This document shows positions 8,687 through 8,886 of a stretch of DNA of 64,000 nucleotides, in pieces. Positions within the stretch are counted from its first letter, which is position 1. Every line of letters begins with the position of its first letter. A program made the position numbers and the translations under genes. The stretch covers positions 1,227,348-1,291,347 of the forward strand of contig CAVSEO010000005.1 in NCBI GenBank assembly GCA_963727005.1, given 5' to 3'. The notes beneath the pieces are model-generated. The model saw nothing but the letters and a program-made list of their open reading frames with translations. It was not told where the DNA came from and did not search any database. Origin of the DNA: an uncultured Chloroflexia bacterium. Lineage in GTDB: Bacteria; Chloroflexota; Limnocylindria; Limnocylindrales; CSP1-4.

Positions 8687-8715
8687 TTGACACCGGCCTT
8701 TGCGCCCGGTACTGT
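8687..8715 (+). promoter_or_regulatory. Sigma-70-like promoter for the shikimate-operon leader: TTGACA, 17-nt spacer, TACTGT
   Basis: A TTGACA at 8687-8692 and TACTGT at 8710-8715 with a 17-nt spacer, about 14 nt upstream of the leader-peptide start. Confidence 0.4.
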
Positions 8716-8728
8716 CCGGAGCATCGTC

Positions 8729-8764
8729 ATGGAACACTTTTTCTTTTACCGCTACCCGGCATGA
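8729..8764 (+). CDS. Candidate attenuation leader peptide MEHFFFYRYPA (three Phe and two Tyr codons out of 11)
   Basis: ATG at 8729 preceded by GGAG with 7-nt spacing. The ORF is atg gaa cac ttt ttc ttt tac cgc tac ccg gca tga. It lies between the promoter and an intrinsic terminator upstream of DAHP synthase. Confidence 0.5.
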   Translation: MEHFFFYRYPA

Positions 8765-8810
8765 CCGTTCCCGGAGCTTAGGCCCGGGATCGCGGGTCGT
8801 GCCGGGTGCA

Positions 8811-8836
8811 GCAGAGGCAACGCCTCTGCTTTTTTG
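8811..8836 (+). terminator. Rho-independent terminator / attenuator hairpin in the shikimate-operon leader
   Basis: GCAGAGG-CAACG-CCTCTGC followed by TTTTTTG (7-bp GC-rich stem plus T-tract), 46 nt after the leader-peptide stop and 51 nt before the DAHP synthase start. Confidence 0.6.
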
Positions 8837-8886
8837 TTGCCCGACCAAGACCCTCGCCGGCCCGCCGCCAGTTGGAGGACCGCAAG

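Follow-up and report, generated by a model that had tools for sequence, protein, structure and literature searches.

A probable aromatic leader-peptide attenuator in front of the complete shikimate operon of uncultured Limnocylindria-type Chloroflexota

A stretch of 64 000 nucleotides (nt) from contig CAVSEO010000005.1 of an uncultured Chloroflexia bacterium (assembly GCA_963727005.1), referred to below as the window, carries on its forward strand a complete shikimate operon that begins with aroG, the gene of DAHP synthase. Between a predicted promoter and aroG lies a short leader with a small open reading frame (ORF1) rich in aromatic codons, nested RNA hairpins and an intrinsic terminator. 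Judging from its sequence and from its conservation at 27 loci, this leader is probably a ribosome-mediated transcription attenuator that reads the supply of aromatic amino acids through a leader peptide and controls the complete operon. An earlier reading of the window, made from the letters alone (the sequence-only reading), had proposed that the Phe/Tyr-rich leader acts as an attenuator, and this core of the proposal is strongly supported by the 27-locus comparison. The promoter-like hexamer pair, the 12-codon ORF (stop codon included), the terminator, the ferredoxin-like domain of the DAHP synthase and the completeness of the shikimate operon were likewise confirmed by sequence, folding and Pfam. 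Other details of that reading had to be modified and are discussed where they arise.

The predicted promoter (8687-8715, + strand) consists of a -35 element TTGACA (8687-8692), a 17-nt spacer and a -10 element TACTGT (8710-8715). It was not called by a consensus sigma-70 scan because TACTGT agrees with TATAAT at only three of six positions. Across the 24 related loci aligned over the promoter, TTGAC and a spacing of 17-18 nt to the -10 element are invariant, and the -10 hexamer itself occurs in variants such as TACCGT, CACACT and TAGTGT. We infer a transcript start at about 8721-8723; the 5' untranslated region (UTR) would probably be about 6 nt long. The sequence GGAG at 8718-8721, which had been taken for a good Shine-Dalgarno sequence, is located 3-6 nt past the -10 hexamer; since it follows that hexamer directly, it probably falls upstream of or at the transcript start and outside the transcript. 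It is also not conserved, as only about one third of the loci have GGAG 5' of the ATG and most relatives are without it. ORF1 (8729-8764, + strand) extends from the ATG at 8729 to the TGA at 8762-8764 and encodes the peptide MEHFFFYRYPA. Five of these 11 residues are aromatic, an enrichment in codons for the end products of the pathway, and the candidate sensor codons are those for Phe at 8738-8746 and for Tyr at 8747-8749 and 8753-8755.

The upstream regions of orthologous aroG genes, whose comparison the sequence-only reading had named as a check of its proposal, contain an orthologous aromatic small ORF at 26 other loci. The set of 27 leaders analyzed here is composed of the window, 23 genome loci found via DAHP synthase similarity and three metagenome contigs (L090, L093 and L145) recognized by the leader alone; the contig of L004 stops inside the terminator. 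The closest DAHP synthases are 63-85% identical and are all encoded by metagenome-assembled genomes (MAGs) of uncultured Chloroflexota labelled Chloroflexia or Candidatus Limnocylindria. Wherever the contig is long enough, these relatives display the leader together with the same order of shikimate genes. A close DAHP synthase paralog in L018 (5740-7008; 73% identity) has no shikimate genes after it; it directly follows another gene, and no leader ORF, hairpin or terminator is found upstream of it.

The alignment of the 27 sequences (A1) reveals which parts of the leader are maintained. ORF1 is 11 codons long, or 12 in four loci, and its Pro-Ala-stop end is invariant. Counted back from the stop, positions -7 and -5 carry an aromatic codon in all 27 leaders, position -6 in 20 and position -8 in 11. 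The codons used at these positions are UUC, UUU, UAC, UAU and UGG; because -7 and -5 are aromatic everywhere through differing codons, selection would operate on the class of amino acid or tRNA and not on the RNA sequence. The commonest Limnocylindria core, F-Y-F, occurs in 12 of 27 leaders; that of the window is F-F-F-Y. Trp-containing cores are found in four lineages (YWF, FWY, FYWF and FWFY). The sensing of Phe and Tyr proposed earlier therefore holds as far as these codons go but appears too narrow, since the Trp codons of several relatives indicate a signal from aromatic amino acids in general. The distance between the aromatic codons and the first RNA hairpin, P1, is constant in all loci, with an invariant gap of 5 nt between codon -5 and the first P1 pair, and the N-terminal part of the ORF is variable. 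Four segments are invariant in A1, namely CCCGGCA, UG(C/U)CGGG, GCAGAGG and CCUCUG; the inner hairpin, the terminator loop and the spacers vary freely between loci.

A scan of metagenome contigs with the pattern CCCGGCATGA...TGCCGGG returned at least three true new leaders, those of L090, L093 and L145, among matches that were mostly due to chance. The motif alone is not leader-specific, because many of the chance matches in metagenomes fall in one conserved coding sequence (CCCGGCATGATGCCGATCTTGCA...GATGATGCCGGG). The loci with matches in this coding sequence are L085, L091, L098, L100, L101, L110, L111, L123, L131, L141, L151, L155, L158, L159, L181, L183 and L192.

The leader RNA of the window (8716-8840) folds with an energy of -61.7 kcal/mol, which corresponds to z = -5.3 against 200 dinucleotide shuffles. 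Its minimum free energy (MFE) structure contains the 59-nt hairpin P1 ('1:2'; 8751-8809, + strand), in which the 5' strand 8751-8767, overlapping ORF1 codons 8-11 and the stop, pairs with the 3' strand 8793-8809. The core of P1 is formed by CCCGGCA at 8755-8761 (segment a) and UGCCGGG at 8800-8806 (segment d). Nested within P1, the MFE structure holds an inner hairpin b:c (8769-8789, + strand; UCCCGG-A-GC / UUAG / GC-CCGGGA). Constrained folding with a ribosome placed at the ORF1 stop and covering a and b yields an alternative hairpin, H2 (8782-8807, + strand), where strand c (GCCCGG, 8782-8787) pairs with CCGGGU at 8802-8807 and CGCG at 8791-8794 with CGUG at 8798-8801. Two alternative pairings had been suggested before as antiterminator or pause structures; both exist and correspond to P1 and to the c:d hairpin H2, but neither overlaps the terminator. 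The sequences involved are present at slightly different coordinates, CCCGGCA at 8755-8761 instead of 8754-8760 and GCCCGG at 8782-8787 instead of 8780-8785. In the other leaders, the inner region folds into a hairpin as well, so that one is found in 27 of 27 loci with energies of -8.4 to -19.4 kcal/mol; the stems differ and most have a CCGG core. Within P1 only the closing pair covaries (GC in 10 loci, GU in 7 and AU in 4).

The intrinsic terminator ('3:4'; 8810-8838, + strand) starts with the nucleotide directly after P1. Its stem, AGCAGAGGC / GCCUCUGCU (8810-8830; 9 bp, 6 GC), encloses the loop AAC and is followed by a U-tract at 8830-8835 and then GUU; it is placed 51 nt upstream of the aroG start. 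With strict criteria (a perfect stem of at least 6 bp with at least four GC pairs, and at least six T in the next 8 nt), this is the only hairpin with a T-tract on either strand of the 64 kb, for 0.01 occurrences of the pattern expected by chance from shuffles. A single one in 64 kb suggests that this genome has few canonical U-tract terminators. The P1/terminator module is not reused elsewhere in the window and is present as a single copy per locus. Between loci, the spacer from the end of P1 to GCAGAGG varies from 3 to 8 nt and the distance from the terminator to the aroG start from 31 to 75 nt. That the terminator might simply end the transcripts of upstream tRNA genes was considered and rejected, as the leader is retained at loci that differ in their tRNA arrangement. 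Just 3' of the U-tract, a (C)CGACC motif recurs in the window (8836-8850) and in L001, L009, L013, L014, L017 and L019; it is sometimes repeated (CGACCGACCGAC) and is complementary to GGGUCG, which is invariant in the 3' strand of P1. At most loci, GACC is also found after the leader stop (AUGACC) and at the beginning of the terminator 3' strand (GACCUCUGC).

The leader contains a second mini-ORF, ORF2 (8761-8781, + strand), encoding MTVPGA and ending with UAG. Its AUG overlaps the ORF1 stop in the sequence AUGA, its six codons are read in the -1 frame of ORF1, and its stop is placed in the apical loop of the inner hairpin. The AUG is conserved in 26 of the 27 loci, and L003, which is without it, is also without the stop. 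Between a and d, the ORF2 frame holds exactly one stop (UAG, UGA or UAA) in each of the 26 AUG-bearing loci, at +17 in 22 of them, and the other two frames hold 2 and 4 stops in total. This frame-specific closure is otherwise hard to explain and hence provides indirect evidence that ribosomes reach the ORF1 stop and that ORF1 is translated. ORF2 may belong to the switch itself, or it may only provide a safety stop for ribosomes that re-initiate or have shifted frame. A change of frame (+1 or -1) at aromatic codons starved of charged tRNA was rejected as a route to read-through: there is no conserved slippery site, and in the -1 case the frame is that of ORF2, closed in the loop. A further candidate, ORF3, would start at a GUG in d and continue in frame through the terminator, with a second ribosome blocking it. 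It was discarded for two reasons: a stop ends the frame ahead of the terminator in L013 and within the terminator loop in L017, and the relation of the frame to aroG is not constant.

In the mechanism that we propose, the attenuator would set the fraction of transcripts from the 8687-8715 promoter that pass the terminator, according to the charging of Phe and Tyr tRNAs and, in some relatives, of Trp tRNA. On a leader devoid of ribosomes, P1 would form with a:d paired and b:c nested, so that d would be locked and the terminator would fold. With ample aromatic aminoacyl-tRNA, the ribosome would reach the UGA at 8762 and cover a and b; c would then capture d as H2, or P1 would re-form after release, and either outcome would lead to the terminator and to a stop of transcription. 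Upon starvation, the ribosome would stall at the aromatic codons 8738-8755, its leading edge resting on the foot of P1. The folded b:c would keep c occupied and the G-rich d would remain single-stranded, free to pair with the emerging top of the terminator before the terminator 3' strand is out. The terminator could then no longer nucleate and transcription would read through into aroG. The pairing required for this last step is a candidate antiterminator ('2:3'; 8794-8825, + strand) of 9 bp between GGG-U-CGUGCC at 8794-8803 and GGC-A-ACGCCU at 8816-8825, which takes the upper four terminator pairs and the loop. We put forward this RNA relay as the particular mechanism only tentatively, with the chances somewhat against it.

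Folding models reproduce part of this scheme. In the ribosome-free model, 11-12 of the 13 nt of d are held by a. With a ribosome at the ORF1 stop, 7-9 of these 13 nt pair with c/e (H2) in the window; the mean over all loci is 4.2-4.7 nt, and several loci show none. A ribosome mask at the stop abolishes P1, and masks at the aromatic codons do so only with a footprint of P+15. The pairing of d with the terminator was modeled under the kinetic assumption that a is masked and that the earlier-transcribed inner hairpin b:c is kept; energies with the terminator forbidden were computed with soft constraints. In the window, 8794-8803 x 8816-8825 is then the MFE pairing at RNA ends 8826-8827, and the terminator wins from 8828 on. 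In stepwise folding, pairing of d with the terminator over at least 5 nt precedes the terminator in 24 of the 27 loci. The candidate antiterminator lies 5.8 kcal/mol above the terminator state in the window and 5.1 kcal/mol on average over the loci; in the trp attenuator, the 2:3 helix is likewise less stable than the 3:4 helix. The direct refolding path to the terminator has a barrier of 13.2 kcal/mol in the window and a median of 12.3 kcal/mol, by these models amply high for kinetic trapping within the time that transcription takes. In 18 of the 27 loci, GA is kept before CCUCUGC, and the resulting GACCU is complementary to GGGUC, an invariant part of d; 7 of these 18 loci retain it at the price of a C x A mismatch within the terminator stem.

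Several results weigh against the attenuator as outlined, most of them against its antiterminator. With a footprint of P-site +12, P1 stays intact for a stall at any conserved aromatic codon, and it opens only with the +15 footprint and a stall at codon -5. Equilibrium models give the terminator a probability above 0.9 with the ribosome at -7, -5 or the stop in nearly all loci, and the candidate antiterminator is absent from their ensembles. Complementarity between d and the top of the terminator is present, but it equals that of composition-matched shuffles and was rejected as a specific signal: the duplex is no better than with shuffled d (mean z -0.58), and shuffled d produces early pairing in 70% of trials, compared with the 24 of 27 loci observed. 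When the persistence of b:c is not assumed, d of the window re-pairs with b/c/e instead of the terminator. Folding of 8716-8840, which the sequence-only reading had recommended, thus delivered a single antiterminator candidate that is plausible and statistically behaves like any G-rich strand; the antiterminator may be compositional, a free G-rich strand beside a GC-rich hairpin, and not a specifically evolved helix. ORF2 poses a difficulty of another kind, since its rapid translation to the stop would cover c and free d in replete cells, the wrong direction. The P1 core and the terminator stem are both sequence-invariant, so that covariation speaks neither for nor against them, and the invariance of the lower terminator stem is left without an explanation. 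Moreover, where the transcript starts, whether ORF1 is translated, which pairing serves as antiterminator, and whether and in which direction regulation occurs are all inferred from sequence, in a lineage of uncultured MAGs.

A dedicated antiterminator could be dispensed with if the overlapping ORF1 and ORF2 decided the folding of P1, either through read-through caused by a parked ribosome or with ORF2 as an obligatory second step of the relay; we consider this unlikely. In the parked-ribosome version, which taken by itself seems to us quite unlikely, an intact P1 with the ribosome at its foot would sterically hinder the folding of the terminator at the RNA polymerase exit channel. In replete cells, translation through a and, via AUGA, through ORF2 would unwind P1 and the inner hairpin and leave the terminator free. 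The fixed gap of 5 nt after codon -5 fits such an arrangement, for it puts P1 at about +12 from the P site, where a P+12 footprint leaves it intact, and P1 ends only 3-8 nt ahead of GCAGAGG. This reading also agrees with the fact that no specific antiterminator was detected, and it gives ORF2, found in 26 of 27 loci and ending at the apex of the inner hairpin, a role as unwinder of P1. Yet a spacer that varies up to 8 nt speaks against a tight steric fit, and a ribosome-free P1 beside the terminator is predicted to terminate, which makes the whole effect dependent on the bulk of the ribosome. To our knowledge, a mechanism of this kind is without precedent. A very improbable alternative places the antiterminator elsewhere: the 5' half of an untranslated leader, with its start codon and pyrimidine-rich aromatic codons (e.g. 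CUUCUACUUU), would pair with the spacer and GCAGAGG below P1 in a giant hairpin. Any ribosome on ORF1 would then cause termination, and the aromatic codons would in part be a constraint of RNA pairing. The giant hairpin would explain the invariance of GCAGAGG, and in ribosome-free models it equals or beats the terminator state in L010, L016, L019 and L025 and comes within 0.5-4.4 kcal/mol of it in about ten more loci. Overall, however, its complementarity is no better than that of dinucleotide shuffles (mean z -0.52), and in the window it is worse than random (z +2.0, with a gap of 11 kcal/mol). The UGG-codon leaders of L003, L005, L011 and L016 are unable to form it and still keep GCAGAGG, and its logic would shut the pathway off on starvation.

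The extent of sequence conservation could instead reflect the binding of a trans-acting factor, either a protein or a riboswitch-like ligand, to an invariant P1 and terminator, the small ORF being accessory or without role. Indeed, the P1 core and the whole terminator stem are invariant beyond the needs of pairing although the proteins are only 63-85% identical. Known elements of this sort were looked for. The leader matches neither Phe_leader (RF01859), Trp_leader (RF00513) nor another Rfam 15 family, and even at E = 10 only unrelated microRNA and internal ribosome entry site models appear, with E of at least 0.7; at gathering score, no Rfam family covers the leader in the window or in 12 related or analogous loci. 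The T-box model (RF00230) has no match at E <= 10 in 8300-9200 and none at gathering score in the window, and the leader contains no TRAP-like (G/U)AG arrays. Besides lacking such a match, a trans-acting factor would leave unexplained the aromatic codons fixed in 27 of 27 leaders, the recurrence of similar leaders in unrelated phyla and the frame-specific ORF2 stop, and we find it very improbable. Least credible of all is a non-regulatory leader, in which a chance small ORF would lie beside a terminator that is constitutive and leaky, or beside the point where a small, independent transcript ends. Conservation of the ORF, codon class, spacing and structures in 27 loci effectively refutes this view. 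In addition, the 31-75 nt between terminator and aroG are too few for a separate promoter and 5' UTR, and the terminator is the only canonical one in 64 kb.

The proposed attenuator shares with the classical pheL-pheA and trpL-trpEDCBA systems a promoter, an ORF with regulatory codons, a 1:2 hairpin over the 3' end of that ORF and an intrinsic terminator, as well as the principle that the position of the ribosome chooses between RNA folds. It differs from them by its only 3-5 regulatory codons of mixed aromatic type, and by a candidate 2:3 antiterminator that is weak and compositional instead of an obvious conserved helix. Its leader stop stands 34 nt before segment 2, with the inner hairpin and ORF2 in between, and its 5' UTR is probably limited to about 6 nt. 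Two features go beyond the textbook design and are unaccounted for by it, namely the AUGA-coupled second mini-ORF and the fact that P1 and the entire terminator stem do not vary in sequence. T-box riboswitches, which are found upstream of aromatic genes in Firmicutes, bind uncharged tRNA directly and are about 200 nt long with no leader ORF. As in the attenuator proposed here, the same signal of tRNA charging acts in them on a terminator upstream of aro, trp, phe and tyr genes.

One of the closest known systems is the aroR leader of Corynebacterium glutamicum, which contains Phe-Tyr-Phe, lies upstream of the aroF DAHP synthase operon and was found by RNA-seq (Neshat et al. 2014, J Biotechnol 190:55; via PMC11802643, PMC4046766). 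According to the descriptions given there, aroR raises transcription under Phe limitation, and read-through increases when ribosomes stall (PMC11802643, PMC4046766). The statement of the sequence-only reading that it knew of no described aromatic-peptide attenuator controlling such a shikimate supraoperon was therefore overstated: with aroR/aroF known in C. glutamicum, an aromatic attenuator at the entry of the pathway belongs to a described kind (PMC11802643, PMC4046766). As far as aroR is described, the likeness consists of a short leader ORF of the F-Y-F type ahead of an operon starting with DAHP synthase. The two systems differ in phylum (Actinomycetota and Chloroflexota) and in the class and domain set of their DAHP synthases. 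Here, in contrast to aroR/aroF, the complete shikimate pathway and chorismate mutase would be under control, some leaders contain Trp codons, and the RNA folds into two nested hairpins containing four CCGG segments and carries a second, overlapping mini-ORF that is conserved. On the basis of the sequence comparison, what is new is best filed as a leader-peptide attenuator in the Chloroflexota, over a complete shikimate operon.

Other actinobacterial leaders, such as Streptomyces lividans trpL1, leuL and ilvL and C. glutamicum ilvB, for which a three-hairpin model exists, encode peptides of 12-18 residues that are translated in the absence of a canonical ribosome-binding site, with hairpins and a U-stretch downstream (PMC8079986, PMC11857589). 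These short-leader attenuators also come from high-GC lineages of the Gram-positive type, and the probable 5' UTR of about 6 nt in the window resembles the leaderless leader peptides of Streptomyces and Corynebacterium (PMC8079986). None of the actinobacterial leaders listed in these sources controls shikimate genes, however, and no AUGA-coupled second ORF is described in them (PMC8079986, PMC11857589). Seliverstov et al. (2005) surveyed Actinobacteria and reported no RNA element associated with Phe/Tyr genes (PMC1262725). Our search for literature combining leader peptides, attenuation and Chloroflexi found none.

Ahead of DAHP synthase genes from Actinomycetota, Rokubacteria, Anaerolineae and Clostridia, an aromatic-rich small ORF followed by a strong hairpin and a U-tract is likewise seen. 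Analogous leaders of Actinomycetota are found in L048 (5787-6001; MRTQFWFWFG...), L061 (5858-6001; MRNVFFFTYGG...) and L079 (4743-4899), one of Rokubacteria in L034 (5835-6001; ...SSYFYFTPE...) and one of Anaerolineae in L027 (654-867; ...ETYYYYYYVPF...). Several Clostridia in the set (L046, L053, L073, L042 and L055) have further ones upstream of position 6001; in AT-rich Clostridia, aromatic-rich ORFs are less surprising by chance. Together, the sequences of these analogous leaders suggest that control of pathway entry by leaders of the aroR type reaches far beyond Corynebacterium, the only characterized case.

The operon downstream of the leader begins with aroG (8874-9963, + strand), which has a Shine-Dalgarno sequence GGAGGA at 8874-8879 and a TTG start at 8887, aligned with ATG-ATC-ATC-GTG of L002. 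It encodes a type I-beta DAHP synthase in which the Pfam domain PF18152, an N-terminal ferredoxin-like regulatory domain, precedes PF00793. All remaining steps of the shikimate pathway and chorismate mutase are encoded 3' of it on the same strand, as assigned by Pfam: aroA (EPSP synthase, 9969-11360), aroE (shikimate dehydrogenase, 11357-12331), aroC (chorismate synthase, about 12319-13500), a fused aroK-aroB (shikimate kinase / dehydroquinate synthase, 13618-15185), aroQ (type II dehydroquinase, about 15275-15715) and an AroQ-type chorismate mutase (15708-15995). The fused gene is split over three frames in this assembly, with pieces at 13618-13740, 13745-14524 and 14511-15185 that imply two frameshifts relative to the intact ORF of L001. 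In relatives it is a single fused ORF, of 560 amino acids in L001 and 551 in L013. Assembly errors are the likely cause of these frame breaks, a pseudogene being the alternative. On the 5' side, genes for tRNA-Ser (GCU) and tRNA-Arg (GCG) are located just before the leader (8005-8199, + strand). From tRNA-Arg to the leader promoter, some 490 nt (8200-8686) contain no convincing gene, and a weak terminator-like hairpin lies there on the minus strand (8664-8650). Further RNA genes are present on the minus strand at 3421-3683 and 4266-4502. This neighborhood of signal recognition particle (SRP) RNA and tRNA genes is the same in L001; in L013, the tRNAs are on the other strand.

For the organisms concerned, the leader would place the whole common aromatic pathway and chorismate mutase under a single element reading Phe, Tyr and, in some lineages, Trp codons. 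Combined with the allosteric ferredoxin-like domain of the DAHP synthase, it would subject the entry of the pathway to control at two levels. It would be the first concrete regulatory element for the abundant but uncultured Limnocylindria-type Chloroflexota of soil and freshwater. Aromatic leaders upstream of DAHP synthase genes, in this lineage and in other phyla, are a group of which Rfam holds no member. The invariant P1 and terminator and the second mini-ORF are small and well-defined puzzles; if true, a parked-ribosome mechanism or a two-ORF relay would constitute a new mechanistic variant of leader-peptide attenuation.

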